Source of the DNA: Abditibacterium sp.
GTDB lineage: Bacteria > Armatimonadota > Abditibacteriia > Abditibacteriales > Abditibacteriaceae
Reading direction: 5' to 3'
DNA: 64,000 nucleotides
Assembly: GCA_965246885.1 (NCBI GenBank)
Contig: OZ251992.1
Span: forward strand, 2,528,001-2,592,000
A model generated the notes under the pieces. That model was not told the origin of the DNA. It saw nothing but the letters and a program-made list of their open reading frames with translations, and made no database searches. The translations under genes were made by a program, and so were the position numbers. Position 1 is the first letter of the stretch. Each line of letters begins with the position of its first letter. Shown here in pieces: positions 25,233 through 40,804 of this stretch.

Positions 25233-25319
25233 TGCTTCTCGCCACATAGCTTAGCCAATGACAATGGGTGCAGAACGACACATGATGTCACTGGACAAAA
25301 TAACTCTGATTTTCGCCCA

Positions 25320-26335
25320 TTATTTCTCACAGTCGCCTGGCCGCTTCCATCGCCTCGTGCGCGCTGGGCCGCTCAACCCGCACCCCGAAATGCCCTGCCC
25401 ACTCCCGCGCAACGGCGTGCCCGCGCCCCCATCGCCCGCGCGTAGCCCGCACCCCAGCGCCGCGCAAATACCCTCCCGCCACCCCGGCAACCGTGCGGGC
25501 AATTCCACCTCGTCCGGGCACCCGGCGACCCCCAGCGCCTCGCTGCCCCCCACGAAGGGATGCCACGTCGCCCGCTCGCAGCAGCCCAGCGCCCAGCTCG
25601 CAGTCGCCCCGCGCGGCCCCATCTCGACCACGAGAGCGAGGCGCAATGCCTCTACCCTGTGCAGCGTCGCATGGTCGCACCCGAACACCTTGCGGATGCG
25701 CCCGTCCGCGCTCTGGCGCCAGAAGCGCAGCGTTTGATGAAGCCTGCTCCCCGCGTCCCGAAGCTGTTCCCCCACCCGGTTGTGGAACGCCACGCCCTCT
25801 ATCTCGACCAGAGCGCGCATCCCGCGCGGGCAGATGAAGTCGCCAAGGAGCACGGCAAAGACATGGCGCCGGGCGCTCGCCTCCTCGCGCAGGTCGAACA
25901 GGACGCACTCGCCCCCGCACCCCATCAGAAAGCCGAAGCTCAACCGGGCGTCGAAGTGCAGGCGCGCCAGACCACCGCACGCGCTAAGTTCGGGCAGCAG
26001 GGCGAGTGAGTCTGTGTCCCGGCGTTTGGATTAGCCAAGCGCAAGGAGCGCCTGCCACAACCGCCCGGCTTCGTCCCGATCCCACACCACCTTGGGGATC
26101 AGGGGCGCACCCCGCACGAAAGTCGCTTCCCCGCCCGCTTCTTGAAGCACCATGAGCGCCCCCCGTCGCAGAATCTGGCCATGCGCCCCCGGAACGCGCG
26201 CCCCTCCAAGCCCCGCACATTGAGGTAAAAAGTAGCTTCGACCGGCGCTTCCCAGTGGGCGGGGTCGAAGAACTGCCGGGAGTGGGAGTCAAGCGTGAGC
26301 GTTTGGGGCTGTGCAGGGAGAGCGGGGTTTGACAT
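25320..26335 (-). pseudogene. Degraded gene, possibly a DUF559/Vsr-like nuclease remnant
   Basis: ORF 26099-26335 shifts frame into LIPKVVWDRDEAGRLWQALLALG*. After this TAA the frame continues into ORF 25320-25943, which has GDF...ALVEIEGVAFH...QLRD, resembling the DF..E.DG..H...RD pattern. Confidence 0.4.
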
Positions 26336-26732
26336 AATGAGGAGCGCCGCCTGCTCTTCCCCAACGGAGCCAAACGGAGCGGCACCCCCAAAGTGAAACC
26401 CGCGAAAAACCGCGACACAATCCCCCGCTTTGGCTTTGTCTTAAGCGCGCAGAGGGCAAATTATATGAGAAAATGCCGCAGTTAATCCGCCGTGCTATAG
26501 TCGTTCACGCCCTCGTTGCGTCGAGCAAGGAGTTTAGTCAAATTGCCTAAACTCACCTCCCCTCGCCCAGTCTCTGAACGTTCGATCACGGTGCCTTCGG
26601 CGAACCGTGAAAACCACCCCCGCTGGCCATCTCGCCCAAAGCAGCGAGGACGCTTTTCCGTTTTTCGACTTGGCTTTGCCGGAAAGAATTCCAAGAAACA
26701 CAGTGCCCTATTTTACAATTGTCCCGGTGTGG

Positions 26733-27446
26733 CTATCTAACCGCACGTTGGCGGGCGATGTCAAGAGAGCGGGTCACCCAACGGGCGGGCCAGCCGCGAT
26801 TCCACAGCAAAAGGCAGAGGGTGGTGCGGGCGGGAATTTCCTCTGGCGGGGTTTGGGCGGTGATGGCGGCGCCGCGTTCGAGGAGGGCGGGGAGCGAGAA
26901 GGCGTCGCCGGTTCCCCAGCGCGACGGGGGCAGGGCGTCGGGGCCGACGAAGACTTGAGCGTAGAAGCGAATGGCGCGGCCATCGGAGCGGGCGGCGCGG
27001 CGGAACAGGTCGGCGAGGCGATGCTTGACGCCGATGAAGCCAAAACCTAACTCGCCGCTTCGTTCAATTACCCCGGCTTCCCACCCACCGGTGGCGCGCG
27101 GCGAGGTGGCGAGGGCGGCGCTCCATAAGCGCGCTTCCCCCTCGTCCAAGCGCGGGTCGCCCGCCGGGTCAAGTTCCATCGCCGCGCGCGCCACTTCGCA
27201 AAACAGCCGCGCAAGCGGGCCGCGTTGTTGAGGATGCACGCCAAAGCGCCACAACTCTTCGCCCTGCGCGAAAAACGCCGCGCCGCACCACTCCCCGAAG
27301 CGTTCGCACATCGCTGCCGCGTCGGGGCGCGCATCTTTGTGAGCATCGAACCACGCTTGCCACGCTGCGGCGCCCGCGTTGAAGGCGCGCCGCGACTCGA
27401 ACAGCGACTCGTCTTCAGGGCGGGCGAAACGGGACAGCGTCGTCAT
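26733..27446 (-). CDS. Hypothetical protein, last gene of the tubulin/ZorAB-like operon; possible cold-shock-like OB segment
   Basis: 237 aa, ATGA overlap with the upstream gene. GVIERSGELGFGFIG...DLF resembles the CSD RNP-1/RNP-2 motifs. Confidence 0.7.
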   Translation of the reverse strand: MTTLSRFARPEDESLFESRRAFNAGAAAWQAWFDAHKDARPDAAAMCERFGEWCGAAFFAQGEELWRFGVHPQQRGPLARLFCEVARAAMELDPAGDPRLDEGEARLWSAALATSPRATGGWEAGVIERSGELGFGFIGVKHRLADLFRRAARSDGRAIRFYAQVFVGPDALPPSRWGTGDAFSLPALLERGAAITAQTPPEEIPARTTLCLLLWNRGWPARWVTRSLDIARQRAVR

Positions 27447-28339
27447 CGGGCGGCATCCTTCATCAAATGCTGGACGCGCGCTTCGGCTTGGAGGGCGGAA
27501 GAAAGCGACGCGAGCAGTTGGTCAAGGGGCGGCGCGTCGCGCTCGGTGTACTCGATCTTGAACTCGACAACCGGCAAGCGCCGCACTTGGTCGCCGCGCC
27601 CCGAAGCAATCACCCACGCCGACGGCAACACACCCAAGCCCGCGTTATACGGCTCGCGCGCGGCCTGATACTCTTGCAAGTGCCACTCGTGGAAGCGCTT
27701 TGGATCCCAAATCTTGGCGACTTTGGCCCGATAGTCCACCTTGTCGCCGTCGGGAGTGCGCGTCGTGAGGAAGCGAAAAATCGGGGACTTGTAGTCTTCG
27801 GTCACGTCGCCCAGAACATGCGTCTGGCTCCAGAACGCGCGGATTTTTTCGGCGCGCGCTTGCGAGAGGGGCCAGACATCCTTCTCATCCGGCGCGGCGT
27901 GGCCTTCGATGACGATGGATTTGATGCGCGAACGTTGGAGGAGGAGAACGCGCCCGAACGCGCCCAAGACTTTTTGCGCGGCGCTGGGCGCGGCGAAGAC
28001 GGTGGAGTTGTGCCCGAAGTCGAGGCGTCCTTGCAAGAAGCGGAAGCGTTGGATGGTGCCGTCGTCCTCGACTTCCAGCACGTCGCCGATTTGGTATTTG
28101 CTTTGGTTATCGGGCGCGCGCTGGTTCTTGATGAGACCCGCCCCCGACAATTGTGAGATGAGCGCGTTAGCGATGGCCAAGCGACGCGCGTCGCGCTGGG
28201 CGATGAGTTCCATCTGCTCCGAATACACCGTCGTCGAAAGCAGAAACAGCGCGATGATGCACACGAGCGACACCATCACGTCGGCCAGCACCACGAACGG
28301 ATTGGCGAAGAACTCGAACGCTCCGCGTTTACGTCTCAC
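27443..28339 (-). CDS. ZorB/MotB-like protein (one TM helix with Asp, OmpA-like periplasmic domain)
   Basis: TM PFVVLADVMVSLVCIIALFLL; OmpA-like motifs IVIEGHA, WPLSQARAEKI, ASGRG...RR..VEFKI. GTG start at 28339 overlaps the upstream TGA and follows a GGGAG SD. Confidence 0.85.
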   Translation of the reverse strand: MRRKRGAFEFFANPFVVLADVMVSLVCIIALFLLSTTVYSEQMELIAQRDARRLAIANALISQLSGAGLIKNQRAPDNQSKYQIGDVLEVEDDGTIQRFRFLQGRLDFGHNSTVFAAPSAAQKVLGAFGRVLLLQRSRIKSIVIEGHAAPDEKDVWPLSQARAEKIRAFWSQTHVLGDVTEDYKSPIFRFLTTRTPDGDKVDYRAKVAKIWDPKRFHEWHLQEYQAAREPYNAGLGVLPSAWVIASGRGDQVRRLPVVEFKIEYTERDAPPLDQLLASLSSALQAEARVQHLMKDAAR

Positions 28340-30072
28340 GAACGGCTCCCCGGCCACGAAATAACGAGACCCTTATCCAACCGGGCGGTTGAAGCGCGCA
28401 TTTGGGCGACTTGCACATTCAGGGTGTGCACTTGCGCGGCGATGGACACGACGTTGGCTTGCAGGTTTTGCGACACCTGCGCTGCGCCGCGCAGTTCGTC
28501 GCGCAACGTTTCGACTTGCGCACCGACGCCGTTCAGCCCGCTTAGCGATTGGCCCAGCGACTGCGGCAGTTCGCGCACGATGGCCTCGCGCAGTTCGCCG
28601 CGCAATCCAACGAGCTCTTGCCGTACCTCGCTCACGTTGTCGCCCACGCGCTTGAATCCGGCGCCCTGCCCGTTTTCGATGAGCAGGAGCGGCTCGTTGC
28701 CCAGCGACGCCGGAAGCGCCAAAATCGTTTCTTCGACGCGCAACGCATATTCGCCCATGCCGTCCAGCACGGCGCGGAATTGGTCGAGCAGCAGCTTTTC
28801 GCTTTGGACGCCGCCCTCAATGGCGTCGGATACGCGCAGCAGACCGCGCGCGATCTCCTCGCGTAGCGTCGAAAGCGCGGTTTGTGTCGCGGCCTTCATG
28901 TCGGCGCCCAGCGACAGGGCGGAACTTTGCGCGTCGCGCGCGAGTTGTTGGCTCGACAGCGCGGATTCGAGCATCACGCCGTGTGTTTTAGCGTTTTCGG
29001 CCAGCAGTTCGCGGCGCAGTTCGCCCAATTCCACGAACGTGCGGCCCGCGCCCAACACGGCTTCGCGGAGGGCGCCCAGACTTTCTTGCCCGGCGCTGTT
29101 CCATTCGCGCGTCGCGCTGCCAAGCGTTTCGCCGTGCGTTTGGATGGTGCTTTGCAAGTCGCTTAAACCGCCCGCGAGTTGGCTGGACGCACCCGCGAAA
29201 CCCAGCGCGGCGCCGTCCAAGGTATCGGCGGACGCCGCCAAACTTTTGGCGATGGCCTCGTTCGCCTCGCGCAGTTCTTTGGCGCTCGCCCCCACGCTTT
29301 GCAGCGATTCTAGGGCGCTGCCAATGCCCTGCGTGAAGCCGTTGGCGATGATTTCCATCCGCTTAACCGCCGCTTCGAGGCGCGGCAACTCTTCGGTGCG
29401 CTCCATCATTTGTGCGGCGAGTGGCTCGATTTCGAGCAACGAGAACTCCTCGACTTCCTCGCGCAAACGCTCCCAGCCGCGCTCTTGGGCGTTGATTTTA
29501 CCGGCCAAAACGAGCGTGAAGCCCACGCCCGCCGCCGTTGACCCAAAGGCCGCGCCCATGCCGCCGAACACCGCCGTCATGTGCGCGACGACTTCCTTTA
29601 GGCCCGTCGCCGCCGAAGTTTCCGCCGCGTTGCGTCCGACCAGAAACGCCAGTTGCGCCACCGCCTGTCCCAAGCAAACGAGGGTTCCCGCCAATCCGAT
29701 GAACACAAAAGCGCCTTGCCAGTAGCGCGCTTCTTCGGTGACGGCGTAGAAAATCTGCGGAAGCGTCGCTTCGGGGCGGCGCGAGCGGTTGCGCGAGGTG
29801 AGCCGCGCGCGCTTCCACACGAGCGTATTGGTGACTAGCACAGATCTGAGCTTGTCCACGAGCGCCGCCGCGTTGTCTCCGGCGGCGCGCGACTCTTCGA
29901 CCAGCTTCGCGGCGCCATCCAGCGCCGCGCGCTCGATGGACAGCGCTTCCGCGAGCGCGTTCAGTTGCGCGTTTTGCCGTTGAAAACGCACGAACAGGTA
30001 CAAGAACACCCCCGCGACGATGGCCAGTTCAACCAAACCCGCCGGGGTGAGAAAGGGGGAAAGCCAGTTCAT
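28336..30072 (-). CDS. ZorA/MotA/ExbB-like membrane protein with a long cytoplasmic helical tail
   Basis: Three hydrophobic segments, including FIGLAGTLVCL and MGAAFGSTAAGVGFTLVL (MotA/TolQ/ExbB GxxGT and AFxxT motifs), followed by ~380 aa of Ala/Leu/Glu-rich coiled-coil-like sequence. Confidence 0.85.
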   Translation of the reverse strand: MNWLSPFLTPAGLVELAIVAGVFLYLFVRFQRQNAQLNALAEALSIERAALDGAAKLVEESRAAGDNAAALVDKLRSVLVTNTLVWKRARLTSRNRSRRPEATLPQIFYAVTEEARYWQGAFVFIGLAGTLVCLGQAVAQLAFLVGRNAAETSAATGLKEVVAHMTAVFGGMGAAFGSTAAGVGFTLVLAGKINAQERGWERLREEVEEFSLLEIEPLAAQMMERTEELPRLEAAVKRMEIIANGFTQGIGSALESLQSVGASAKELREANEAIAKSLAASADTLDGAALGFAGASSQLAGGLSDLQSTIQTHGETLGSATREWNSAGQESLGALREAVLGAGRTFVELGELRRELLAENAKTHGVMLESALSSQQLARDAQSSALSLGADMKAATQTALSTLREEIARGLLRVSDAIEGGVQSEKLLLDQFRAVLDGMGEYALRVEETILALPASLGNEPLLLIENGQGAGFKRVGDNVSEVRQELVGLRGELREAIVRELPQSLGQSLSGLNGVGAQVETLRDELRGAAQVSQNLQANVVSIAAQVHTLNVQVAQMRASTARLDKGLVISWPGSRS

Positions 30073-33000
30073 CAGGTGAAATCAAACGGCACGGGAGCTT
30101 CAGGCGCGGCAGAGGGTGTTGGCGCGGCGGGCGGCATCGGCGCGTACGTGGGTGGATAAGTGGGTGGCATCGGCGCCGCGTTGGACGGGGCCGTCGGGTA
30201 AGTGGAGTGAGGCGCCGCATGAGTGGGCGCGCGGGGCGTAGGCACACCATTAGCGCCGGGAAAAGGCGCGACGACGGGTTGCTCTGGGGCCAGCAAGTTA
30301 CGGTCGAACGGTGCGTTGAGGCGGGCGCTCAGTTCGCGGTCGTTTTTCCAATACCCGCACAATAGCTCGAACGCTTCGGCGGGTGTGAGACGGGCGGCGC
30401 CAGCCCCTTGCGCGCTTGCGGTCGTGTTTGGCCCATCTTTTTCGTAGCGCGTCGAGAAGCGGCTGGGCGTGCGCCAGAAGCCGAGGCTTTCGCTGTTGCG
30501 ATACACCCATTCCAAACCTTGAGCGGTGCTTTCGACGCCCAAACGGAGGCGCACGCGCTTGATGTCGTCTTCAAGGCACTCTTGGAAGTCCGGATAATCG
30601 CGCAAAGTCGTCGCCGCTTCGCGCAAGTCGGGCGGCAGATGGAGCGTGTGACGCCCCGGAGCCAACTCTTTGGCGGGCGAATAGACCCACCCGCTCGCGC
30701 TTTGCTTGACCAGAATCCCCGCTTCCGTTCCGTCGCGCGACAGGCCGCGCCCCTACAAAAGCAGCCCTTGGCGCCACGACAATTTGCCGTCGCGGTCGCC
30801 GTCGAAGGGCATCCATTTGACATCGGTGCGCGCGTGGACGAACAGCTTCTCGCTTTCAAGCTCGAACGATTGGCGGCAGTTATTGCCTTCCAGTTCGGGT
30901 GGCTGAAAGCCAGTCACCATTGGAAGCGAGAAGCCGCCGAGGGCGCGCACCAGTAGCAAGTCTTGGGGCGTTGTGCTTTCCTCGAACTGCATTCGGACGC
31001 CACCATCGCGCATCCCTTGAAGCGTATTATAAGCGGCGCCCGCTTTGGTTCCCGCTTGGCTGGGCGCGTTTTTGGCGCCTTGAAAAAACACCAAGTCCAC
31101 CTCGTTGGCGCCGGTCAGTTGCACTAAGCCACTGGTGCGATTGAGGCCCAGCTTGACGGCGCTTTTATCGCGCACATCGCGCAAAAGCGTGGCATTGCCG
31201 ATTTCGGGACGCGCCAACACCGATTCTTGCAAAAGCGGCGAGAACGTCGAGCGGAAGGCGCGCGCCATCGTTTCGGCCTGAAGGCGCAGTTCGCGCGTCA
31301 GATCCTCGCCCGCCGCGCGCATGGCGACGCCGTCCACAAAGTAGGTGCCCAGTTGGGTTGGCTCGCCCGATGCCGCGTCTACATGGGGCAACGCGTTCCA
31401 CCCGTGCGCAAAAGCGTTCTGCGCGCGCAGTTTGGCCTCAGGCCCCGCTTGATTCCAAAAGGCGAGGAAGCGCGCCTCAATAGTGCGGTTCGGCTCGAAG
31501 AGGGATTCGCCGTTGAGAATGGGCTTGGCCTCATCTATTTTGGCGAGCTTGCCCGCCAGAATTTCGCGCATCTGGCGCGCCCGCGCAACGAGGGCGGTGT
31601 CGTCGTTGCCACCCGCGCCCGCGATGTGGGCTTTCATGGTACGGACGAGGGGGAGCAAACGCTCGCACAGCATCCGTTCGGGCGCAAGGAGCATGGAGTC
31701 TAAGCGCTTGCGATAGGCGGATTGCGCGGCTTCGGAGTAGCCGACCAGTTCTCGCTCGATGGCGCGTTTGCGGCCAATGAACAGCGCCACGAACGGGTCG
31801 GTCGCGCACGCTTCGACGCGTGAGCGGGCGGCAGCGAGGGCGTTCTTGGCGCTCTTTTGGCTTTTGTCGAGCGCGTCGGCGCCTGCCCCAGAACCCAACT
31901 CCTTGGCGCGGTTTTCCAGCCATTTGGCCGCTTCGCCCAAGATGACGTCACACCAAACGGGGCCGCGATTGGGGTCGCGCAGTGCCAGTTGGATTTCGCG
32001 GTCGAGAGCGCGGGCGTAGTCGCCTTGCAATACCTGAGCGTTGGCAGCAACGCGGCGGGGCACGACGTGGGCGGGCAAGGCCGAAGTCGCGTCGCGGTCG
32101 TTGGCGGGCGCAAGGTCGGCATTTTCGGGCGCAAAAGCGCGGTTGATGCGCTCTTCGGCGGCGCCGAGGTCATTGGCGGCCTGCGCCCCGGCGTTGTGCG
32201 CTCCGGCGACGGCGCGGGCGACTTCCTCTTTAATGCGCGCCAACACGCTCGCGCCCTCACCGTCGGGGGCGTTGGGGTCGCGTAGCAAGCGCGCGGCAAT
32301 TTGTTCGCTGGATAAACCCAGCGTTTTGATGCGGAAAGCGTCGGCTTCTTGGAGCGCGTTGGGGCGCGGCGCGAGCAAGCTGTCAAAGGCTTCGACGCCC
32401 AGTTTGTAGCAGCAGCCCTGCGCGATGAGGTAGCCGGGAATTTCAAGCGCGCTCATGCCGAACGAGTAAAAGGTGACAGGCGAGCCGTTCTTGTCGCCCG
32501 CGAACATACTCGCGCTGCCGTCCACCGTGCGCGCTCCCAACTGCGCCGCTTCGGGGTTGAAGATGTCGTTGTGCAGGAACTGGGCGGTGGTGACTTTGAC
32601 TTCCTCGAACGACTGCTCGTCGCCGCCACCCGGCTGCGAAAGGTAGGTCGTGTCGTAGGGCGAGTAGCGCGTCGCGTTTTCGGGGCGACCGGGGTGAAAC
32701 GGATACTGGACGGAGTAGTCGTTGCCGCTCATGTAGTGGTTCAGTTCTTTGAGAGCGGCAAAAGCGTTGGCGCGGCGGCGCTGCCAACGGAGCGGATCGT
32801 ACGACAAGTTGGGAAGCGAAAACAAGCCCACGCGCTGAATCGGGTAGCCGTTGGCGGCGAAAGCGTAGTGCAGCAAGTAACCCAAGTCAATGAAGGCGCC
32901 TGAACACGTGCCGCCGCACAGCGTGCCGACGACATACACGACGGTGTCCTTGGAAAGCATCATCGGCGGATTGGTGCCGTCGGGAAGCGGGCCGCGCGCC

Positions 33001-33437
33001 AGTTGTGCTTCTTGGGGCGTCAAGCGTTGCAGGGCGTCGAGGCGCACCTGAATCTCGTCGCGGATGCGGTTGCAAAGGCCGGGGAACAAAAAGGCGAGGC
33101 GCCCCACCATGCGGATGTTGCCTGCGCCCTTGGTGATGGCGCGGTCTTGGAGCGACAACAACGCGTCCTTGTCCCACCACTTCTCCAAATCGAGTTGCTC
33201 CTTGTAGCGCCCCGGCGAGTTGATGACGTTGGAATAGGAGGTCGCGTCCACGCCCAGATGGAAGTAGTTCTGGTCGAGTTCACCCGTGCCGTGCGGGGCC
33301 TCTGTTTCCAACACGAGGAATTTGAGCCAAGGCGCGGCGTCGAAGCCGCCTTGCTCCCATTGGATGCGTTGCGCGATGTAGTCGCAAACGTCGTAGCCGG
33401 TCGAACCCAAGCCGATGATTAAAGCGCGTTGTGCCAT
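30072..33437 (-). CDS. Giant tubulin/FtsZ-like GTPase (Tubulin_2/FtsZl-type), one in-frame TAG at 30753-30755
   Basis: LIIGLGSTG, GAGNIRMVGRL, VGTLCGGTCSGAFIDLG, ANAFAALKEL, PYDTTYL. ORFs 30753-33437 and 30072-30665 share a frame and are separated only by a TAG; the Pro-rich tail ends in a TGATG overlap with the ZorA-like gene. Confidence 0.88.
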
Positions 33438-33466
33438 GAGAAGTTCCGTAAAACAAAGGGACTAAG

Positions 33467-33913
33467 CTAAGCCGCCTTTTTCGACAGCGAGGAAATAAGC
33501 AGGGCGGACACGAACAGCCCGCCAAAGAAGAACGCGTAGGGCGCCCACCAAGGCCACGTGAGCGGCAACATCAGCATCCAAACGAAAAGCAACACAAGCG
33601 CGCTCACCCAAGCGGCCACACTTCCGGCGCGCGGCGCGAAGGTGCCCAACGCCACCAACGCCTGATACACGATCAGCCCAAACAGATAAGCGAACACAGC
33701 GCCAAGCGCAAGGCTCACATACAAGCCGAACTTTTGCAAGTAAAGGCTCCACACGCGTAGCGTAACATCAACGGCCCCTAAAAAGGACGGCGTTCCCAAC
33801 CGCGCGGCGCCCGTTTGCGCCCATGCCGCGCTGGGATGGAGCGCCAGAATCGCTACAGCTGGAAGTAGCGCCAGCCACTGTCCGCGCAACCGAAAGAAGA
33901 AAGAGTGCCTCAT
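33467..33913 (-). CDS. Small multi-pass membrane protein
   Basis: 148 aa; signal-like N-terminus (AWAQ) then three hydrophobic helices; tightly spaced within the operon. Confidence 0.75.
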   Translation of the reverse strand: MRHSFFFRLRGQWLALLPAVAILALHPSAAWAQTGAARLGTPSFLGAVDVTLRVWSLYLQKFGLYVSLALGAVFAYLFGLIVYQALVALGTFAPRAGSVAAWVSALVLLFVWMLMLPLTWPWWAPYAFFFGGLFVSALLISSLSKKAA

Positions 33914-33920
33914 GATGGTG

Positions 33921-35348
33921 TTAGAGTTTGCGCACCGACACCGAGGCCACGATGCGCCCCGTCGCGGTGTCTATAAGGTCGAAGTCGCCGCGCTGTCCGG
34001 TTAACTTTAGTCCGGTCGGCGTGCTTTGAAAGCCTTCGGAGTTCTGCGCCGACAGCGCGCCGTTGCTAACGAGCAGCTTCTTGGAAAAGTCGGATTGAAT
34101 GAGCGCCAAAGGCCGGTCGGTATCGAATGTGACGCCCGGCAAGCGGTAGTGCGCGCCCTTGGCGGGCGTGTCTTTGCCCAGAATCGGCAGCGTCCGCGCC
34201 GGAAGCGCCGCAACCTGCCGCGACTCCTGCTCATCAAGCCGAAAATTCACGGGCCGCGCGACCCAAAACAACGCGCCGCCCAGTAGAGCAAGAAGCGGGA
34301 GAATCAACAGAACCGCGCTCCCGCCCCCACCAGTGTTCCCCTCGGTTTGGGAAGGCAAAGGTGTTGCTCCCACCGCTTTCGCAGTGGGCGCCGCAACTTC
34401 GCCAGTGAGCGGCTCCAATTTCTGCGGCGCGAAGACGGACATGTCGTATTCGAGGTTGCCGACTTGGACGGTTTCGAGGCTTTGTTTGGGATTCAACCCG
34501 GCGTCGCCCATCGCCTTGGCAAAAGCGGCAAAGCGTTGGGGATTTGATTCCAGCACCAAGTCCTTGTCGGTTGCGGGCGTTTCCGGTCGCGTGCCGTCCG
34601 ACAGAGTTTGCGGGGCCTGCGCGAGGTCGTTCCAGTCCAGCACGAGAAGGATGGTGCTTTTTGGGTCGAGGTCGTTCTGCTCCATCCAACCCAACGTTTT
34701 TTGCAGCGCCGCGCGCCAGTCGTGTCCGTCGCTCCACTTTCGGCCTTGATACTCGTCGTCTTGGGGCGATACCGCGACGGACTTTTTCAGGTTCGAGGTG
34801 TCGCGGAGCGCTTCAGCGAGGGGTTGGATGGCGCCGCGCTTGTCGCCCAGAATCGAGAAGTGATAGGGCCATACGGTGAGCGTGTCGCGCACTTGCGCAG
34901 GTGGCAAGTTGCGGCGCGACTGCGCGAGGGCATCTATGAAACCTTCGATGCCGCGCCGCGTGTTGGTCAAGCGCGCGTTGGAATCGCCGTAGCGCGCCAC
35001 TTGCGTCATGATAATCCAATGGTAGCCGCCCGGAGCGCCGAGTGCACCCGCTTGCGCCGACGGCACGCCGCGTTCTTCGAGGGCTTTGCGCGCGCGAAAC
35101 AAGAGCCGCTTGAGAACATCGCCGCTATCAGAAGTGCCCGCCGCCACATCGGGCGAGGCCGGGGGCGAAGAAAGTGGTGGCAGCGCGTCTTGAGCGCGAA
35201 GCGGCGCCAGAAAAGCGGCGTTTAGCAACAGGAACAAGCCAAAGAAAAAAGTTGAAAATCGAAAAGTCAAGCCGGAAACCTCAAGGGCGAGCGGGCCAAA
35301 GCGCGCGGCGCGGTTAATTTTAGCTGACTGGAGCGGTGTCCGTCCCAA
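33921..35348 (-). CDS. Membrane-anchored protein with a divergent vWA-like domain and a C-terminal cytoplasmic beta domain
   Basis: Signal/TM (FFFGLFLLLNAAFLAPLRA); vWA-like strand/helix order (HWIIM, RRGIEGFIDAL, DTLTVWPY, GHDWRAALQKTL, TILLVLDW); TM (VLLILPLLALLGGALFWV). No canonical DxSxS. Start uncertain. Confidence 0.6.
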   Translation of the reverse strand: MGRTPLQSAKINRAARFGPLALEVSGLTFRFSTFFFGLFLLLNAAFLAPLRAQDALPPLSSPPASPDVAAGTSDSGDVLKRLLFRARKALEERGVPSAQAGALGAPGGYHWIIMTQVARYGDSNARLTNTRRGIEGFIDALAQSRRNLPPAQVRDTLTVWPYHFSILGDKRGAIQPLAEALRDTSNLKKSVAVSPQDDEYQGRKWSDGHDWRAALQKTLGWMEQNDLDPKSTILLVLDWNDLAQAPQTLSDGTRPETPATDKDLVLESNPQRFAAFAKAMGDAGLNPKQSLETVQVGNLEYDMSVFAPQKLEPLTGEVAAPTAKAVGATPLPSQTEGNTGGGGSAVLLILPLLALLGGALFWVARPVNFRLDEQESRQVAALPARTLPILGKDTPAKGAHYRLPGVTFDTDRPLALIQSDFSKKLLVSNGALSAQNSEGFQSTPTGLKLTGQRGDFDLIDTATGRIVASVSVRKL

Positions 35349-35372
35349 AATTTGGCGCGGACGGCAGAAGGT

Positions 35373-36962
35373 TCAAGCGTGGGGAGTGGCGGGTGCCGAA
35401 AGCGCGGGCGGCACGCTCAGGTCAAAAGCGCACAGGCGGCTTTCCTTGGCACTTATCCAATTCACAACGAACGTTTCGCCGCACGGCGCGAGCGTTAGGG
35501 TGCCTCCCCTTCCCGATGCGTCGCGCAAAGGTCGTATCCTGAGCCACGAAAGCGGCGCGAGCGCGACTGGAGCGACGGCCAGGAGCCACAGCGTCACGAT
35601 ATCGCCCTCATCAGTCGCGTAGAGGAGACAATGCGCCGCGCCGAAAACTGCGCCGGTGGCCCAAACCACAGGTGCGCCCGCTGGAAGTTCCTGCTCGCGC
35701 GCATCGTCCAAAGGCCGCGCGCCATCGAGGGTCGTGATAACGCTTCGCGTTCCCGACCGAAAGAACGCGATACTCGTTCCATGCACGCACGGAAACGGGA
35801 AAACGGCGTCGTTGGGCGCCATAGGAACCGACAGTTCGGCCCCATCGCTTCCGCCGTGTTCGAGGCGCCGCGCCCACAATCCCTGCGCGGTGCGGCCCCA
35901 CAGCCACAGCGCCGCGCCGTCTGGAATGGCGCCTTCGAGCGAGCGCCCATTGGCTTCGACCTGAAACTCCGCGTGCCATTCCCCCTTTGCATGGCGCCAC
36001 AGCGTGCCCTCGGTGCGAATGGCGGGCGTGTCATCCCACACGAGCAGTTCACGGAAAGTAGCGGGCGACAACCCCGGTGGAAGCGCGAGGTCGCTCGCTT
36101 CAAAGAGCGCATCTCCTCCGCGCGCGCTCACGCCCACAAGTGTGTCGTGCCATTGCCCAACGGCCAACCAATGAGTTGGCGTTGCGGCTTGGAACAGCCA
36201 CTCGACCTCGTGCGGTTGCCACCCCGCACCTGTTGGCGCGGCATCGGGCACGCCGCCGAAGTCAAAAGCGCCCCCCGCTTCGGGCGCATCGAGTAACTCT
36301 TCGCGCGCGCGGCGCACCAAGTGCTGCGGTTCGCCGCGCCCCGACAAATTGAGCGGCACGCGCGCCACACCGCGCGCATGGAGCAAATGGGCGAAGCCGT
36401 GCGTCAGCAGCAATCCTTCGCGCCGGGGGAACAGCCCATTGGCGGGCAATGGCGCGGGCACCGCGAAAGTCGCAGGCGGCGCGAAAGGCCAAGGCTTGCC
36501 CGACCGGGGGCGCCCAAATAGCCACAGCTTTTCGTCCTGCCACCACGCCAATACCCCATAACGCGACGCCATGCCGCCAAAGCGCCCGGTCGTTACTGGG
36601 GTGTGGCCGCCGCCTTCCAAAGCGGTGGGGCGCGCGCTACCCCACTGCGACGCCAACACAAGCGGCGCCCCGCCCGCAACGCCGCCATGAAAAGGATGCG
36701 GCTCGATGGGCCGCGTCCGCGCGACCGCGCACCGCTTGGTTTGGCAAGCGCGTGCATCGAGCGGGTGCAATCGCCCGCACAGCGCGCACAAGAGCGTGAA
36801 CCGCTCGCAACCGGGGCACCGCGAAACCGGAACGAGGGCGCGCACCGGCAAACCCTCTTGGCCGCATCCATACGGGCACGGCTGCAACAACGCATAGCCG
36901 CAATGAACGCAAAACCGCGCACCGTCGGGCGAATCCGCTTGGTGACAATGGAAGCACTGCAT
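35373..36962 (-). CDS. Multi-zinc-ribbon protein with a probable beta-propeller-like C-terminal region
   Basis: N-terminal Cys pairs CFHC, CVHC, CPYGC, CPGC, CALC, CQTKRC, then short Trp/Gly-rich strand-like repeats. Confidence 0.7.
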   Translation of the reverse strand: MQCFHCHQADSPDGARFCVHCGYALLQPCPYGCGQEGLPVRALVPVSRCPGCERFTLLCALCGRLHPLDARACQTKRCAVARTRPIEPHPFHGGVAGGAPLVLASQWGSARPTALEGGGHTPVTTGRFGGMASRYGVLAWWQDEKLWLFGRPRSGKPWPFAPPATFAVPAPLPANGLFPRREGLLLTHGFAHLLHARGVARVPLNLSGRGEPQHLVRRAREELLDAPEAGGAFDFGGVPDAAPTGAGWQPHEVEWLFQAATPTHWLAVGQWHDTLVGVSARGGDALFEASDLALPPGLSPATFRELLVWDDTPAIRTEGTLWRHAKGEWHAEFQVEANGRSLEGAIPDGAALWLWGRTAQGLWARRLEHGGSDGAELSVPMAPNDAVFPFPCVHGTSIAFFRSGTRSVITTLDGARPLDDAREQELPAGAPVVWATGAVFGAAHCLLYATDEGDIVTLWLLAVAPVALAPLSWLRIRPLRDASGRGGTLTLAPCGETFVVNWISAKESRLCAFDLSVPPALSAPATPHA

Positions 36963-36966
36963 GGAA

Positions 36967-38202
36967 TTAAAGTTGTCCCGTCACGCGCGGCGCGTCGGAG
37001 AGGGGCGGCGCGACCATTGGCGGGGCAAGCGGGACTGTTCCGGCGCCCCGTTCTTGGGTCGGCGCGCCTAATTCTTCCATTGGCGCACCTAATTCCGTCG
37101 TTGGCGCGCGTAATTCTTCGGTTGGCGCAATCAACTCAACGACTGAATTAGGCGCCGCAACCACTGGCGCGGTGGCGCGCATGAGGGGCGGGGCGGCTTC
37201 GGGCACTTTGGCGGGTGGCGGCGCCGCACTTTGAAAAACGGCGCGGCGCACGCGGGCTGGTTGCAGCAGTTTCTTTTGTCCATCGGGCGAGATTAGCTCG
37301 AAGCCGCCGCGCTCGACCGCCACAATTACGTTATGGCGGGCCACATCGGAAGTGGGCGTTTGCAGGAACTCCGAACTCGTATGGAAGCGGGCGTCGAAGC
37401 GGGTTTCTCCGGGCACAATTTCCAGCGCCGCGATGCCAGTGCGACGGCGCAGCGTTTCCTTGACGTGCGCGCGCAGTTCCGCCGTCGCCGTTTCCAAGCA
37501 GCGCAGCGTTTGGCGTTGTTCTGGGGTGGAGTTTTGCGGCGTCAAATCGCCCCACGAAATGCGCGCGTCGGGCATCCACAGCGTCCGCTCGAATTCCTCC
37601 ATGCGCCCCTCGAACCCCGCGCCGCCACCGCTTTCCAGTTCGTTTTGCAAGGCGCGTAGCGCGCCAAAATGCTGGAACAACTGCGCCGCGAATAGGTGCA
37701 CCATGCCGCTTTCCACCTCGAAGGCCCTCAAGCGCTTGGTCATCTCCTCGCACCACGTCGCCAACAATGCGGGCGATTCAGTGCGAATCTCGAACGCCAC
37801 CCGTTGCCCCCACTGCGCGCGAAAGGCTTCCAATTGCGCTTGGAGGCCCGCATTTTCCGCGCGCACCGCGTCGAACTGCGCCCCGACTTCGCGCCGCATT
37901 TGCGCCAACCCCTCGCTCGCCCGTTGCTCTTGGCGCTTGAGTTCTTCAGTTACTTGCGCGCTCTGCGTTTTGAACTCATCGGTCAGGCGCGCCAGAAAAT
38001 CGAGCAGTTGCGCGTTCAGCCTGTCGTTGTCGGCCCTCTTGTGTTCTGCGAGCGTCGCTTGAACGCGCGCCAGATGTTCCGGCAAGAGCCGCTCGGTGTT
38101 CGCCTCCAATGACTTGAACTGCCCTTGCAACTGCCGTTGGCTCTCGCTAACGGCGTTGAGTTTATCCTCCATCTCTTCGAGATTTTTGCGGAAGTTGAGC
38201 AT
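36967..38202 (-). CDS. GrpE-like protein with a long N-terminal coiled coil
   Basis: Coiled-coil N-terminus; IVPGETRFDARFH...NVIVAVERGGFEL...LLQPARV matches the GrpE head pattern (G..FDP..H...I..V...GY...LLRPA.V). Directly downstream of the Hsp70-like gene. Confidence 0.8.
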   Translation of the reverse strand: MLNFRKNLEEMEDKLNAVSESQRQLQGQFKSLEANTERLLPEHLARVQATLAEHKRADNDRLNAQLLDFLARLTDEFKTQSAQVTEELKRQEQRASEGLAQMRREVGAQFDAVRAENAGLQAQLEAFRAQWGQRVAFEIRTESPALLATWCEEMTKRLRAFEVESGMVHLFAAQLFQHFGALRALQNELESGGGAGFEGRMEEFERTLWMPDARISWGDLTPQNSTPEQRQTLRCLETATAELRAHVKETLRRRTGIAALEIVPGETRFDARFHTSSEFLQTPTSDVARHNVIVAVERGGFELISPDGQKKLLQPARVRRAVFQSAAPPPAKVPEAAPPLMRATAPVVAAPNSVVELIAPTEELRAPTTELGAPMEELGAPTQERGAGTVPLAPPMVAPPLSDAPRVTGQL

Positions 38203-38209
38203 GATGTTT

Positions 38210-40804
38210 CTAAAAGGAGTAGGAAAACAGAAGTTTCAGTTGACCCGATTGGTCGCTGGACACGTTCAAGCGGCGACCTTGCAACTCCATTTTGACAGAC
38301 ACCGCGCGCACTGGAGCGTCGTGTCCGCCCTCTTCCACCCCGGCGTCCACGTTGCGAAGCGCGAACATACCGACGCGCCCCTCAAACGGCGTGTTTCCCG
38401 CCGCGCCCCGAACGAAAACCGTGAAGCGCACGCTCTGGTCGGTGTGCAGGTCGTAAGTTAGCTCTCTGGAGCGCACCGATGCGAGCGGCGCGTGTTCGTC
38501 CGCCTCGAAAATCGCTTTGCCGCGTTCGTCCACGACGCGCAGCGCATAAGGGAGCGTGTTGTCTTGCGAGGCTTTGCCCGCCCAGACCGCGCCGCCCGCA
38601 ACAGCTAACATCCTGTCGGAGTCATCGAACACATCGCCGTTTCGCACGGTCAGTTCTTGCACGCCGCCGGGAAAGAACTCCTGCAACCAATCTTGCACGC
38701 GGCGCACGCGGCAGTTGCCGCCCACGCCAAAAACCCACTTGATTTCAACAGGCGCCGGAACGCCTGCCCCATCAGGAAAAATGCGCCGCCGCATTTCGGC
38801 GCCGATGGCGTCCAAGCGGCGATTGACCACCACTTCGTCGAACTCGCGGCGCGCGATTTTGACCTGTTTCGACTCCACGCCCGCGACGGTTGATTTAAAC
38901 TCCAGTTCGACCGGCGTGCCGGGCGAACCGGCGCCCGCGAACTGGCGCTTGAAGGCTTCGGTTTTGTTCCACACGTCGAACTCGCGCACCCAAGGGTTGG
39001 GGATGCGCGCGTTCCCGGCCAGTTCCACTTCGCCTTGCAAGAGGATTTCCTCGTTCTTGGGTGCCAATTGCGCGATGGAGTTCAAGCGTTTGTAGGTGCC
39101 CTCGTCTTTAATGAAGTAGCGCAGGAAGTCGTACGGAACGCCCGCTCCATTTTGCCAGATGGACAAGTAAATTGCCGTCGTGCGCGTGAGGGCTTCGCCG
39201 CCAAAGGTGGAAACTGCCGGTTTGCCGGGTGCGGCGCCGCCGTTTTGGTAGCCGCCGAGGGTCGCCACTTCCTCGAAGCGCATTCGCGCGCCGTCCAAGC
39301 GCACTTGGCCCAGTACAACGTCGGTCGTGCCGCCGCCCGAATCGAAGATGCACGCCCAATCGCCGTCGTGGGGCGGGTCGAACTGCGGGTAGCGGTAGTG
39401 GCCGTGTTGCAACAGGAGGTAAATCGCGGCGCAAAACGGCTCTGTGAAGAACTCCAAGGTGTCATTGGGGCCGACGAAGTGCGCGGCGCGGATGGCCTTT
39501 TCCAAGCGCGAGCGTTGCAAGTTGTAAAGAGTTTGGGTGCCGCCGCGATGCGAGTCGAGCACCGGCAAAGAAAAGTTCCACGCGACCGAGGCGGCTTCGC
39601 CGCCTTCGAGGTCGGGCAGAATAATCTGGCGGCGCAGCGTTTCGAGGTAGCGTTTAAGCAGCAAATCCACGCGGTAATTCGGGCCAAACTTCGCGACATA
39701 CGGCTCGCCTTCGGCGCGCAGGAGAGTTTTCAGTTCGGTCACGAACAGACCCGGTTCGAGGTCTTCGACCCGCCGTCGCAGGGCTTCGTAGCCGATGAAA
39801 AAGCCGACTTCATGGCCGTTGCGAAACGAGACATACAGCACGGACGGAAAGCGGTGCGGGTCATCGCGTCCCGCGACGGCGTGCGGATCAGTGAGGGGCA
39901 CAGCTTCCAGTCGGTCGTCGCGCCCGTCGCGCTTCCAAATGGAGGTGCCCGACGTGCCAAAATCCACGCCCAACACATAACGCGTGCGCGTCGTGAGGCC
40001 GCCGGGCGCGGGCACCATCAGGGATACCTCGCCCAATTGGTCGCCGCTCGCGCCGGAAAACACCACGCGCGCGATGCCCGCTTTGGCCATTCCGGTCGCG
40101 TGAATTGTCCACTCTTTGCGCCCGCCCGGCGCCAAAGTCCACTCGCCCGCTCCGGGAGTTCGCGCCTCAACTTCCATCCCGACCGGCCACAGGGGAGGGC
40201 GCAACACAAGCGGCGTTTCACCGGAATTGCGCAGCGACAACACGCGCTTGCGCGCGCGACCATCGAGCATCAGAAGCGTGGTTTCCACTTCCAAATGCGC
40301 CGGACGCGGCGACGACGCCAAGACCCACAACGGCTCCCACACGCGCGTGCGATTCTCCGGCTCGATGTCGAAGCCGTCGCGCGGCGCGCCGTCCCCCGTC
40401 GCCAGATAAAGCGGCACTTGCAACGGCTCGTCCACCGGTGCAGGCGCTTTACCGACCCAGCGCAACGAGAGGGGCACCGTCGTCGGCGCAAGGGAAGACG
40501 GCTTTTTGATGTCCGCCGAAAAGTGCGCGAGAGCTTGGCCGCGCACATCGAAGCGCACGAGCGACGTTTCTTCCACGCGCGCCCGCACCAGCAAGGCGCG
40601 CAGTCCAACCGCGCGGAGCGCCAAACTTGCGGAGTTCGCTTGGGGCGCGAACACCAAGCCGGGAGCGCCCATTGGCGCGCGAAGCGACATCGTCGCGCGC
40701 CCGCACTCCGGGCAAAAAGCGAAGGGCGGTTCAATGCGCGCTGCACATCCATCGGGATGAATCTGTTGACAGGTAAGGGGTTCGATGGTGGCTCCTAAAA
40801 CCAC
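38210..40804 (-). CDS. Hsp70/actin-fold ATPase with N-terminal Zn-ribbon and Ig-like domains
   Basis: CQQ..GC...FCPECG; LSLRNSGETPLVL (Ig/ASH-like); then LGVDFGTSGT, FPSVLY, LKTLL, FTEPFCAA, FDSGGGTTDV, FGGEALT, VGGNCRVRRVQ, AVAGGA. Confidence 0.9.
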   Translation of the reverse strand: MVLGATIEPLTCQQIHPDGCAARIEPPFAFCPECGRATMSLRAPMGAPGLVFAPQANSASLALRAVGLRALLVRARVEETSLVRFDVRGQALAHFSADIKKPSSLAPTTVPLSLRWVGKAPAPVDEPLQVPLYLATGDGAPRDGFDIEPENRTRVWEPLWVLASSPRPAHLEVETTLLMLDGRARKRVLSLRNSGETPLVLRPPLWPVGMEVEARTPGAGEWTLAPGGRKEWTIHATGMAKAGIARVVFSGASGDQLGEVSLMVPAPGGLTTRTRYVLGVDFGTSGTSIWKRDGRDDRLEAVPLTDPHAVAGRDDPHRFPSVLYVSFRNGHEVGFFIGYEALRRRVEDLEPGLFVTELKTLLRAEGEPYVAKFGPNYRVDLLLKRYLETLRRQIILPDLEGGEAASVAWNFSLPVLDSHRGGTQTLYNLQRSRLEKAIRAAHFVGPNDTLEFFTEPFCAAIYLLLQHGHYRYPQFDPPHDGDWACIFDSGGGTTDVVLGQVRLDGARMRFEEVATLGGYQNGGAAPGKPAVSTFGGEALTRTTAIYLSIWQNGAGVPYDFLRYFIKDEGTYKRLNSIAQLAPKNEEILLQGEVELAGNARIPNPWVREFDVWNKTEAFKRQFAGAGSPGTPVELEFKSTVAGVESKQVKIARREFDEVVVNRRLDAIGAEMRRRIFPDGAGVPAPVEIKWVFGVGGNCRVRRVQDWLQEFFPGGVQELTVRNGDVFDDSDRMLAVAGGAVWAGKASQDNTLPYALRVVDERGKAIFEADEHAPLASVRSRELTYDLHTDQSVRFTVFVRGAAGNTPFEGRVGMFALRNVDAGVEEGGHDAPVRAVSVKMELQGRRLNVSSDQSGQLKLLFSYSF

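Follow-up and report, generated by a model that had tools for sequence, protein, structure and literature searches.

An operon joining FtsZl1-like, Hsp70-like and ZorAB-like genes in Abditibacterium: a probable modular, envelope-anchored NTPase system

To our knowledge, no function has been established for any of the FtsZl1 proteins, which have diverged further than all others in the tubulin/FtsZ superfamily. They were defined by Makarova and Koonin (2010, Biol Direct 5:33, PMC2875224), who, in the available text, described operons in which FtsZl1 is accompanied by proteins with vWA or OmpA domains, by kinases and by a diverged GTPase, and who proposed a role in membrane remodelling. Here we analyze a 64,000-nucleotide stretch of the genome of Abditibacterium sp. 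(assembly GCA_965246885.1, contig OZ251992.1, positions 2,528,001 to 2,592,000 of the forward strand; this whole stretch is referred to as the window), in which a gene for an FtsZl1 (Tubulin_2) GTPase is strung together with genes for an Hsp70-type ATPase, a GrpE-like protein, zinc-ribbon proteins and a ZorAB-like stator pair. Very probably, as we argue below, these genes encode an accessory, modular, envelope-anchored nucleoside triphosphatase (NTPase) system, an FtsZl1-centred variant of the type described by Makarova and Koonin, with three modules brought together in one operon.

When considering what such an operon might be, the closest described systems provide the frame of reference. The accessible main text of PMC2875224 names neither MotA nor Hsp70. 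In the accessible part of its supplementary file 5, the Deinococcus radiodurans genes DR_0540 to DR_0536 are tabulated as a hypothetical protein of 478 amino acids (aa), a 109-aa protein, FtsZl1 (1070 aa), a MotA/TolQ/ExbB protein (411 aa; DR_0537) and an OmpA protein (201 aa); the same supplement places MotA/TolQ/ExbB beside FtsZl1 and OmpA in D. deserti as well, and lists a 1626-aa "Chaperone DnaK (HSP70)" after FtsZl1 and three vWA genes in Magnetospirillum. The DO-GTPase/GAP1-N2 conflict systems of Kaur, Burroughs, Iyer and Aravind (2020, eLife 9:e52696, PMC7159879) include, in the text as available, two non-overlapping themes, one of tubulin with vWA and one of HSP70 with GrpE, which occur mainly in Firmicutes and Actinobacteria; tubulin and HSP70 were proposed there to be assembly-forming, NTP-dependent parts of the conflict machinery. 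As for the stator, ZorAB is described in the accessible part of Hu et al. (2024, Nature 639:1093, PMC11946911) as a 5:2 proton-driven, peptidoglycan-binding, envelope-sensing motor in which the ZorA tail recruits ZorC/ZorD. A 2025 survey of MotAB relatives mentions, in its accessible text, neither tubulin or FtsZ nor Hsp70 or DnaK, and a 2023 FtsZ/tubulin superfamily phylogeny, likewise as available, leaves Tubulin_2 aside.

The operon occupies the minus strand of the window from 40804 to 26733 as an uninterrupted string of ten co-oriented open reading frames (ORFs), here designated g1 to g10 in gene order, with g6 and g7 being the two parts of a tubulin-like gene that is split by an in-frame TAG:

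g1, 38210..40804, minus strand: 864 aa; N-terminal zinc ribbon, a beta-rich region of ~230 aa and an Hsp70-type ATPase core from about residue 270
g2, 36967..38202, minus strand: 411 aa; long N-terminal helix, helical region, conserved C-terminal block and Pro/Ala-rich tail
g3, 35373..36962, minus strand: 529 aa; N-terminal double zinc ribbon, then ~430 aa without a recognised fold
g4, 33921..35348, minus strand: 475 aa; signal/transmembrane (TM) segment, putative exported domain of ~250 aa, TM segment at ~340-362, cytoplasmic beta-rich C-terminal domain
g5, 33467..33913, minus strand: 148 aa; small multi-pass membrane protein, as judged by its hydrophobic segments
g6, 30753..33437, minus strand: 894 aa; FtsZl1/Tubulin_2 GTPase domain (residues 6-351) and a long helical region, ending at a premature TAG
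TAG, 30753-30755, minus strand: the in-frame stop that splits the tubulin-like gene
g7, 30072..30752, minus strand: C-terminal part of the tubulin-like protein, in the frame of g6; 197 aa when counted from the first start codon (30072-30665)
g8, 28336..30072, minus strand: 578 aa; MotA/ExbB/TolQ/ZorA-like three-helix core (residues 1-220) and an all-helical, putatively cytoplasmic tail of ~350 aa
g9, 27443..28357, minus strand: 304 aa; MotB/ZorB-like, with an N-terminal TM helix carrying Asp26 and a diverged OmpA-like peptidoglycan-binding domain
g10, 26733..27446, minus strand: 237 aa; its start overlaps the stop of g9 by 4 nucleotides (nt); no family

Consecutive genes from g1 to g6 are separated by 7, 4, 24, 7 and 29 nt, and the 3' junctions overlap, by 1 nt at g7/g8, by 22 nt at g8/g9 and by 4 nt at g9/g10. 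The original prediction, a note made earlier from the sequence of the window, had described nine tightly spaced, co-oriented genes; the co-orientation and the spacing (gaps of at most 29 nt, or overlaps) are as it said, and the count has to be raised to ten ORFs since the one at 30072-30665 had been missed. This arrangement is not due to chance: g1-g7 are syntenic in two congeners (genomes G009 and G011), and g1-g10 are syntenic in another genus of the family (G021). A promoter scan yielded 2 sites as compared to 2.1 in shuffled sequence, that is, no excess, and the promoter/terminator scan found no clear operon boundary; upstream, 123 nt off, lies a co-oriented gene of the ComM/YifB type (Mg-chelatase-like). 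Among the ten ORFs, direct Pfam matches are limited to g6 (PF13809) and g9 (OmpA, just below the cut-off), with NCBIfam and PADLOC adding weak extras only, namely, g9 against ZorB1 (E 1.7e-4) and g2 against the coiled-coil part of ZorA models.

The assignment of the tubulin-like gene is straightforward. The g6 protein matches PF13809 with E 1.4e-46 and 159.8 bits (cut-off 27) over model positions 1-355 of 356, is the sole Tubulin_2 match in the genome and is 68% identical to its orthologues in G009 and G011. In the relatives, the gene is a single ORF of 1134 aa (G009), 1132 aa (G011) and 1109 aa (G021), and g7 corresponds by alignment to residues 941-1134 in G009 and to residues 928-1071 in G011; since g6 and g7 thus correspond to one ORF in all three relatives, the tubulin-like gene is interrupted here. 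The TAG at 30753-30755 recurs letter for letter in contigs from two public runs, both belonging to one study, and these runs may be the source of the assembly itself. Recoding of this codon was considered and rejected as unlikely because TAG works as an ordinary stop in 6 of the 24 genes checked in the window. Hence, what this genome carries is not an intact, full-length FtsZl1 gene, although the family assignment stands. The 894-aa product of g6 retains the complete GTPase domain, and the downstream part, g7, could be made from a TTG at 30665; the copy of the operon in this genome may be impaired by the premature stop. The two genes that precede the tubulin-like gene are predicted to encode membrane proteins. 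The topology of g4 was taken from its sequence and alignment; the protein has no Pfam match, VWA included, and in the Atlas language-model feature search its nearest clusters (0.93-0.94) carry VWA_2/VWA, which is a lead rather than a test. The small protein g5 has no family match in Pfam or NCBIfam and is kept in G009, G011 and G021.

The Hsp70-like protein g1 has, by itself, no match in Pfam (including HSP70, PF00012), NCBIfam or PADLOC. An alignment of five sequences shows conservation of the motifs typical of the actin/Hsp70 fold (DFGTSGTS, EPxCAA, DSGGGTTD, FGGE and GVGGN), of which DFGT..TS, EPxCAA, DSGGGTTD, FGGE and GGN are invariant, and the N-terminal zinc ribbon is made up of four cysteines (C12, C20, C31 and C34). 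When the profile of this alignment was compared with PDB sequences, 11 of the 12 matches were Hsp70 nucleotide-binding domains, with E values from 1.2e-4 to 8e-3, among them SSB1, BiP and HSPA2; the top-ranked match, a designed repeat protein, was discarded as spurious, being confined to a stretch of 39 residues. The Pfam HSP70 cut-off (20.6 bits) is passed by two of the seven g1 homologues scanned (25.6 and 23.9 bits). We therefore take g1, on the strength of its motifs and profile matches, to possess the nucleotide-binding domain of the Hsp70 family. Beyond that domain, a weak phmmer alignment reaches residues 280-466 of SSB1 (E 0.078), and g1 appears to lack the helical lid of Hsp70, as the protein ends ~110 residues past the ATPase core.

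For the next gene, g2, the Pfam GrpE model (PF01025) gives no match; the same model recognises three other genes of this genome, the canonical grpE, which lies beside dnaJ (locus L032), and two longer paralogues. A comparison by hhalign of the g2 family with these three GrpE proteins gave E 0.002 at a probability of just 14%, over 172 columns (g2 residues 106-318). The position of the gene is more telling: in relatives, the gene immediately after the Hsp70-like one was scanned in 14 cases, of which three exceed the PF01025 cut-off (with 58.8, 32.3 and 30.8 bits) and another three score below it, with two of the sub-cut-off positional equivalents matching the hidden Markov model (HMM) of the g2 family at 1e-9 and 3e-9. 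The AF2 model of g2 consists of a helix at 2-134 and helices at 144-255, the remainder being unfolded, including the conserved C-terminal block (pLDDT ~30, from an alignment of four sequences). With moderate confidence, these data point to g2 as a diverged GrpE-like protein. A complex prediction for g1 (265-864) with g2 (100-335) scored 0.00 and gave no answer, which is evidence neither way. The two extra GrpE paralogues of the genome, a 294-aa protein at L033:1141-2025 on the plus strand and a 273-aa protein at L034:1471-2292 on the minus strand, may serve other non-canonical Hsp70 systems. The third protein of this group, g3, scores 18.7 bits against the double zinc ribbon family DZR, below the cut-off; of 13 g3-like homologues, DZR is found at E<=1e-3 in ten and over the cut-off in four. 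A PDB profile search and an Atlas search of the remaining ~430 residues gave nothing usable, and no Walker A motif (GxxxxGK[ST]) was seen on reading the g3 sequence.

The stator pair is more diverged. The original prediction had pointed to PADLOC as a means of checking the locus, and the outcome was mixed: g9 matches ZorB1, weakly, and g8 is not matched by PADLOC or Pfam; indeed, g8 and its close homologues remain unmatched by MotA_ExbB even at E<=1. The PF01618 cut-off (22.9 bits) is passed by four distant homologues of g8 (29.1 bits in G213, 28.0 in L026, 26.5 in L068 and 24.4 in L072), which are tied to g8 by blastp (7e-9) and by HMM. Across 14 members of the g8 family, R116, G126, L127, G129, A175, G182 and F185 are invariant and T130 is nearly so, which places G126-L-x-G-T and A175...G182..F185 on the conserved helices. 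The AF2 model of g8 is all-helical to the end and confident for residues 10-220 only (pLDDT 65-87). A VIA fold search with this core, independent of Foldseek, returned ExbB 6ye4_A (Z 12.8, root-mean-square deviation 3.2, 198 residues aligned), four ZorA entries (11.6, 11.5, 11.4 and 10.5, the best being 8qyh_A with 195 residues aligned) and TolQ 9kpz_A (11.3), the matches to these families spanning 191-198 residues; values of this size are readily attained by helical bundles. Foldseek found nothing in the PDB for the g8 model at E<=1e-3, with TolQ chains as the best entries (probability 0.90-0.94, E 0.5-0.8). By its conserved helices and modelled fold, g8 is a probable member of the MotA/TolQ/ExbB three-helix class. 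Its partner g9 reaches 25.5 bits against OmpA, just short of the 27.2-bit cut-off, which its orthologue in G021 (29.5 bits) and six other family members (30.4-72.1 bits) exceed; D26, in the single TM helix, is invariant across nine family members, which also share the OmpA-type core. Judged by the scores of its homologues, g9 is the OmpA-family partner expected of an FtsZl1 operon. In other loci, relatives of the pair match PADLOC ZorA with E values as low as 3e-17 and ZorB1, over nearly its full length, with values as low as 5.5e-16; the ZorA matches fall largely in the tail and, since the JetC and LmuB models score there too, they may partly reflect coiled-coil composition. The last gene, g10, was left without a match by Pfam, NCBIfam and PADLOC and by a PDB profile search; its homologue was found in G021 alone, at the equivalent position, and it is missing together with g8 and g9 in G009 and G011. 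On the whole, the labels of the original prediction (tubulin-like, Hsp70-like, GrpE-like, Zn-ribbon, ZorA/ZorB-like) hold at the family level, in part by way of homologues.

The distribution of these genes shows how they belong together. The g1 protein is present in two of the 12 other congeners and in one other genus of the family. In the two congeners, G009 and G011, the genes g1-g7 follow in the same order with 34-68% identity and g8-g10 are lacking, the operon stopping ahead of the convergent pheT/pheS; in the other genus, G021, the full set g1-g10 is found at 29-46% identity, on two contigs broken inside g3. In a genome from another family of the phylum (G213) the order is zinc-ribbon, two unknowns, small ORF, Tubulin_2, Hsp70-like, MotA_ExbB, OmpA and a 167-aa ORF, and a 7.3-kb contig of G176 carries Tubulin_2, ZorA-like and ZorB-like genes. 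Outside the phylum, the core families occur in six loci (four labelled Poribacteria, two uncultured), where an unknown protein (470-484 aa), a small ORF, a short Tubulin_2 (479-506 aa) and an Hsp70-like protein (985-1002 aa) are followed by a coiled-coil protein, a long-tailed MotA_ExbB, OmpA and a further unknown (321-323 aa); Pfam was applied to two of the six and PADLOC to three. Thus, the gene order, which the original prediction had named as something to be checked, is conserved in other genomes, and the four core families (tubulin, Hsp70-like, MotA and OmpA) recur across phyla, arranged differently in G213 and in the loci outside the phylum.

A wider search was made with a profile of eight Hsp70-like sequences, which matches 49 of the 401 genomes of the phylum at E<=1e-5, with the caveat that the weakest matches, ORFs of ~550-590 aa, may be ordinary Hsp70s. 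Among 1.84 billion cluster representatives, the profile has 147 matches at E<=1e-30, a number that grows to 630 at E<=1e-10 and to 2616 at E<=1e-3; a metagenome scan with the Hsp70-like alignment yielded one locus (L035). Twenty further loci of the phylum, picked by best score and not randomly, were scored with our own HMMs. In nine of them a tubulin gene lies within the string of the Hsp70-like gene, in two (L068 and L072, the latter on a 5.9-kb contig) the stator pair is the immediate neighbour of the Hsp70-like gene and a tubulin gene is absent, and in four the Hsp70-like gene has no recognisable partner; the commonest string reads Hsp70-like, GrpE-like or coiled-coil, zinc-ribbon, unknown (~440-490 aa), an optional small ORF, and Tubulin_2. 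When five loci from Abditibacteriaceae and G213 are added, a tubulin gene is present in 14 of the 25 loci, the stator pair in five and both in three, all these counts being lower bounds because several contigs are incomplete. Two loci (L076:1953-9051 and L084:1884-9004) have two tandem genes for trypsin-like proteases between the tubulin-like and Hsp70-like genes, and in L076 a protein encoded upstream of the tubulin gene exceeds the cut-off for VWA. On plasmid 2 of Deinococcus deserti, our HMMs recognise the tubulin (2.7e-99), a MotA-like protein (2.7e-20) and OmpA (1.7e-33), so that Deinococcus has tubulin, MotA and OmpA without an Hsp70-like gene; the 859-aa product of the gene that follows there is a helical-repeat protein and not Hsp70-like.

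Given the varied gene strings in the loci of the phylum, in those outside it and in Deinococcus, three modules recombine, and the window has all three. Module A comprises the zinc-ribbon Hsp70-type ATPase g1, the GrpE-like g2 and the double zinc ribbon protein g3; module B, the putatively exported vWA-like membrane protein g4, the small membrane protein g5 and the FtsZl1 GTPase encoded by g6 and g7; module C, the ZorAB-like stator g8 and g9 with the 237-aa g10. The stator, which the original prediction had named first, is optional and not the core: being missing from most relatives, it cannot be essential to the core, as only five of the 25 Hsp70-like loci of the phylum have it and two congeners carry g1-g7 alone. 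This pattern, with a core trio of Hsp70-like, GrpE-like and zinc-ribbon genes, an optional tubulin/vWA part and an optional stator, amounts to a testable map of how the parts depend on one another.

How does the locus compare with the described systems? It shares with the FtsZl1 operons the PF13809 family protein itself, with its N-terminal GTPase domain, long helical region and C-terminal domain, and the membrane and OmpA-domain partner genes, with g4 as a candidate for the vWA partner; unlike them, it shows in Pfam and NCBIfam neither the frequent P-loop GTPase nor protein kinases among its ten ORFs. The likeness is closest to Deinococcus, where the order of DR_0540-DR_0536 corresponds to g4-g5-g6/7-g8-g9 and our HMMs match the D. 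deserti equivalents, whereas Hsp70-like, GrpE-like and zinc-ribbon genes are absent there and a helical-repeat protein and a kinase follow instead. With the ZorAB of Zorya, the operon has in common an A-subunit that combines a membrane core of the MotA/ExbB type with a long helical cytoplasmic tail (g8) and a B-subunit whose N-terminal TM segment carries an Asp and whose OmpA-like domain is of the peptidoglycan-binding kind (g9), the likeness of the g8 model to ZorA chains (Z 10.5-11.6) being tied with that to ExbB and TolQ. It differs from Zorya in that a tubulin-like GTPase and an Hsp70-like ATPase take the place of ZorC/ZorD, ZorE or ZorF/ZorG as partners; PADLOC detected no ZorC-G among the ten ORFs or among 92 ORFs of eight related loci. 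The 5:2 stoichiometry, ion flow and phage sensing are features of ZorAB, while the stator of this operon is known from sequence and model.

The systems of Kaur et al., as far as their accessible text (PMC7159879) goes, resemble the operon in their coiled-coil-tailed tubulin homologues, vWA proteins of the membrane, an HSP70 that has its own GrpE, zinc ribbons and numerous TM components, and differ from it in that here a single operon combines the tubulin theme with that of HSP70/GrpE, and does so in genomes of the Armatimonadota type; the word "MotA" occurs 0 times in that text and no stator is mentioned there. None of the ten ORFs matches a P-loop GTPase family in Pfam or NCBIfam, so that the one or two DO-GTPases of the TRAFAC class which, together with GAP1, define those systems were not detected. 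The canonical DnaK-GrpE chaperone cycle, an established feature of the Hsp70 family, offers the last comparison: g1 has the phosphate-1, phosphate-2 and adenosine motifs of Hsp70 and is followed by a GrpE-like gene, whereas it bears a zinc ribbon and ~230 additional N-terminal residues, the operon has no J-domain gene (by Pfam), and the canonical grpE lies elsewhere, beside dnaJ. The operon is, accordingly, best filed as a variant of the predicted FtsZl1-centred systems, and neither as a Zorya nor as a DO-GTPase system. No paper that joins all of its parts turned up in full-text literature searches, in which subscription journals were thinly covered. The statement of the original prediction that no named system combines these parts is borne out, as PADLOC gave weak matches of the ZorA/ZorB type only, none to ZorC-G, and no joining paper was found; the novelty it claimed applies to the full combination, given that pairs of the parts were tabulated in 2010 (FtsZl1 with MotA and OmpA in Deinococcus, FtsZl1 with vWA and DnaK in Magnetospirillum) and the themes were discussed in 2020.

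Turning to a possible mechanism, one can envisage an envelope-sensing motor linked to a GTP-dependent polymer, much as the original prediction did. The g8 and g9 proteins would form a peptidoglycan-anchored, ion-driven channel complex, 5:2 by analogy, with the helical tail of g8 reaching into the cytoplasm; together with the exported domain of g4, this complex would report a disturbance of the envelope, such as the entry of a phage or another foreign element. The signal would then govern the assembly of the tubulin-like GTPase at the membrane, and the Hsp70-like ATPase, driven through its cycle by a GrpE-like exchange factor of its own, would load, remodel or disassemble this assembly, the outcome being a conflict or containment response that does without a nuclease. 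As a whole, this mechanism is tentative, and we would put its chances somewhat short of even; the combination of the system's identity with a sense-and-respond mechanism of some such kind is the best overall explanation of the locus that we can offer, and one in which our confidence is evenly divided.

We favour, for this envelope-anchored sense-and-respond system, a role in conflict with phages or other mobile elements. An accessory role of this kind is suggested by the patchy spread of the genes (2 of 12 congeners, 49 of 401 genomes of the phylum), by the shuffling of modules, by the protease-bearing variants and by the toleration of a nonsense mutation. It is suggested also by plasmid-borne FtsZl1-vWA relatives that lie within defence neighbourhoods, namely, a vWA and tubulin-like pair between Swt1-HEPN/DUF1156 genes and BrxL on a plasmid of Meiothermus taiwanensis (L105) and a similar pair next to CHAT and caspase-family genes on a plasmid of Nostoc punctiforme (L106). 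There is, moreover, the precedent of ZorAB, a demonstrated envelope-sensing proton motor with a signalling tail (PMC11946911, accessible part), and the proposal of tubulin/HSP70 conflict assemblies (PMC7159879, accessible part). Finally, defence genes are found beside four of the seven stator-bearing loci whose flanks were examined, a grouping made post hoc: the window (CRISPR-Cas), L068 (type I-C cas), L024 (a LmuA/HamA-like domain) and L031 (type IIG restriction-modification-like); L018, L026 and L030 have no defence neighbours.

Several observations weigh against a conflict role. The enrichment near defence genes, which the original prediction had proposed as a check, was not seen: PADLOC matches at E<=1e-10 occur in the flanks of 6 of the 19 test loci as compared to 4 of the 11 control loci, the control being crude (124 flank ORFs against 120 ORFs, the latter from other regions of the same genomes and forming the scanned part of 214 ORFs from 18 control loci) and not fully independent, as control locus L089 shares a contig with test locus L068. 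Most of the matches in the test flanks are of the generic mad2/mad3 type, which is present in the controls as well. Housekeeping genes are neighbours in G009 and G011 (pheST), L025 (nadABC) and L026 (SHMT). No recognisable toxic or nucleic-acid-directed effector was found in the operon with Pfam, NCBIfam or PADLOC, g8 is unmatched by the Zorya models of PADLOC and g9 is matched weakly, and the stator is missing from most relatives. Physical contact between the stator, the tubulin-like and the Hsp70-like proteins is a prediction, and the premature stop may leave this copy of the operon doing nothing.

Some of the same observations suit a machine that serves the envelope without any role in immunity, as in the original reading of Makarova and Koonin. 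In such a machine, the polymer would shape or move the membrane (during the formation of vesicles, the repair of the envelope or local constriction), the Hsp70-like and GrpE-like proteins would act as its assembly chaperone, and the stator would supply proton-motive energy and peptidoglycan anchoring, as TolQR does at the division site. Every module is linked to the membrane, the operon has no nuclease or toxin domain in Pfam or PADLOC, and remodelling was argued for from gene context in 2010 (PMC2875224, accessible part). Because no effector was found, the neighbours named above include housekeeping genes and the defence matches are no more frequent than in the control, remodelling stays a serious rival; yet we consider it unlikely, since a distribution that is patchy even within the genus would be unusual for a housekeeping envelope function, the modules are shuffled, proteases replace some of them in L076 and L084, plasmid-borne relatives sit inside defence islands, and this genome tolerates a nonsense mutation. 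At the opposite extreme, the locus might embody a fourth kind of Zorya-like immunity, in which a peptidoglycan-anchored proton motor of the ZorAB type senses phage entry, signals through its cytoplasmic tail and recruits a tubulin-like GTPase polymer and a dedicated Hsp70/GrpE ATPase cycle in place of a nuclease, these building or dissolving a membrane-associated assembly for containing the invader or for shutting the cell down. This would amount to a cytoskeleton-based bacterial immune effector; we regard it as distinctly unlikely.

Two more modest readings concern the unity and the integrity of the locus. It could consist of two or three independent systems that happen to be neighbours, with the ZorAB-like pair and g10 as a self-standing, minimal Zorya-like or Tol/Exb-like unit, and the separability of the parts speaks for this: G009 and G011 carry g1-g7 without g8-g10, in L068 and L072 the stator pair adjoins the Hsp70-like gene without a tubulin gene, and Deinococcus has tubulin and stator without the Hsp70-like gene. 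Nevertheless, the stator family recurs as a neighbour of FtsZl1, of the Hsp70-like gene or of both, in no fewer than four distinct arrangements from two or more phyla (seen in the window with G021, in G213, G176, L068 and L072, L026-L031, and Deinococcus, with MotA 2.7e-20 and MotB 1.7e-33), start and stop codons overlap at g7/g8, g8/g9 and g9/g10, and there is no ZorC-G partner that would turn the pair into a Zorya system of its own, all of which makes mere neighbourhood very improbable. To a reading of the operon as a decaying remnant, non-functional as a whole because of its truncated tubulin gene and kept by chance or for some partial function, we give equally little credence. The in-frame TAG does occupy a position where three relatives stay open, is present in contigs of two runs and is a normal stop in this genome; it is, on the other hand, the single lesion found, all other ORFs being intact and tightly coupled, g6 retains the whole GTPase domain, and the downstream part could start from the TTG at 30665. 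In any case, decay would concern this copy only and would fit any functional reading of the family.

As for the surroundings of the operon, its distance of ~1.5 kb from a WYL-cas operon, as given in the original prediction, is correct, as the WYL/WCX gene (24237-25247) lies 1.49 kb from g10 and the cas genes and the CRISPR array are mapped next to it. The array, at 2044-15844 of the window, is very large (~13.8 kb), with a repeat of 29-30 nt starting GTTTCAATCCC and a period of ~66 nt; cas1-, cas3- and cas6-like genes follow at 16.4-24.2 kb, and then comes the WYL/WCX regulator. On the far side of the array, a 244-aa ORF at 1043-1777 on the minus strand has a TacA-type antitoxin domain (PF08681, E 1.2e-17). 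Two co-oriented ORFs of 217 and 144 aa without family match (25327-26418, minus strand) lie 314 nt downstream of g10, in the interval that separates the operon from the WYL gene. At 44570-51137, again on the minus strand, two amidohydrolase-like genes, an AMP-binding enzyme, two ORFs without matches and a 400-aa ORF with weak likeness to PqqD form a run that might be a small biosynthetic cluster. Among the related loci, the stator and Hsp70-like locus on contig C13 of G117 (L068:17637-19984) lies 5 kb from type I-C cas1/cas4/cas7 and 27-45 kb from a dense defence island (L089:1773-17940) with an Old/Gabija-like ATPase, a DruE/BrxH-like helicase, an RT_UG29 reverse transcriptase, and MzaA-like and mad3/mad8-like genes. 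At L081:11223-11912 (minus strand), the Hsp70-like gene is overlapped at its start by a 229-aa gene that matches PADLOC mad2 (E 1.4e-14); mad2/mad3-type matches occur near three loci besides this one, and in control regions.

The significance of these findings lies, above all, in the partners of the FtsZl1 family: in at least two phyla, FtsZl1 is wired to two machines whose workings are understood from other settings, an ion-driven stator of the ZorAB/MotAB type and an Hsp70/GrpE ATPase cycle. These partners, together with the GTPase itself, offer experimental handles, namely, the Asp of the stator, the GTP loop of the tubulin-like protein and the ATP site of the Hsp70-like one, and Deinococcus radiodurans is a tractable relative because its DR_0536-DR_0540 genes carry the tubulin and stator module. 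Should the system be immune in nature, it would represent a polymer-forming effector downstream of a Zorya-type sensor; should it not, it would be a new coupling of the proton-motive force to a bacterial cytoskeletal element.

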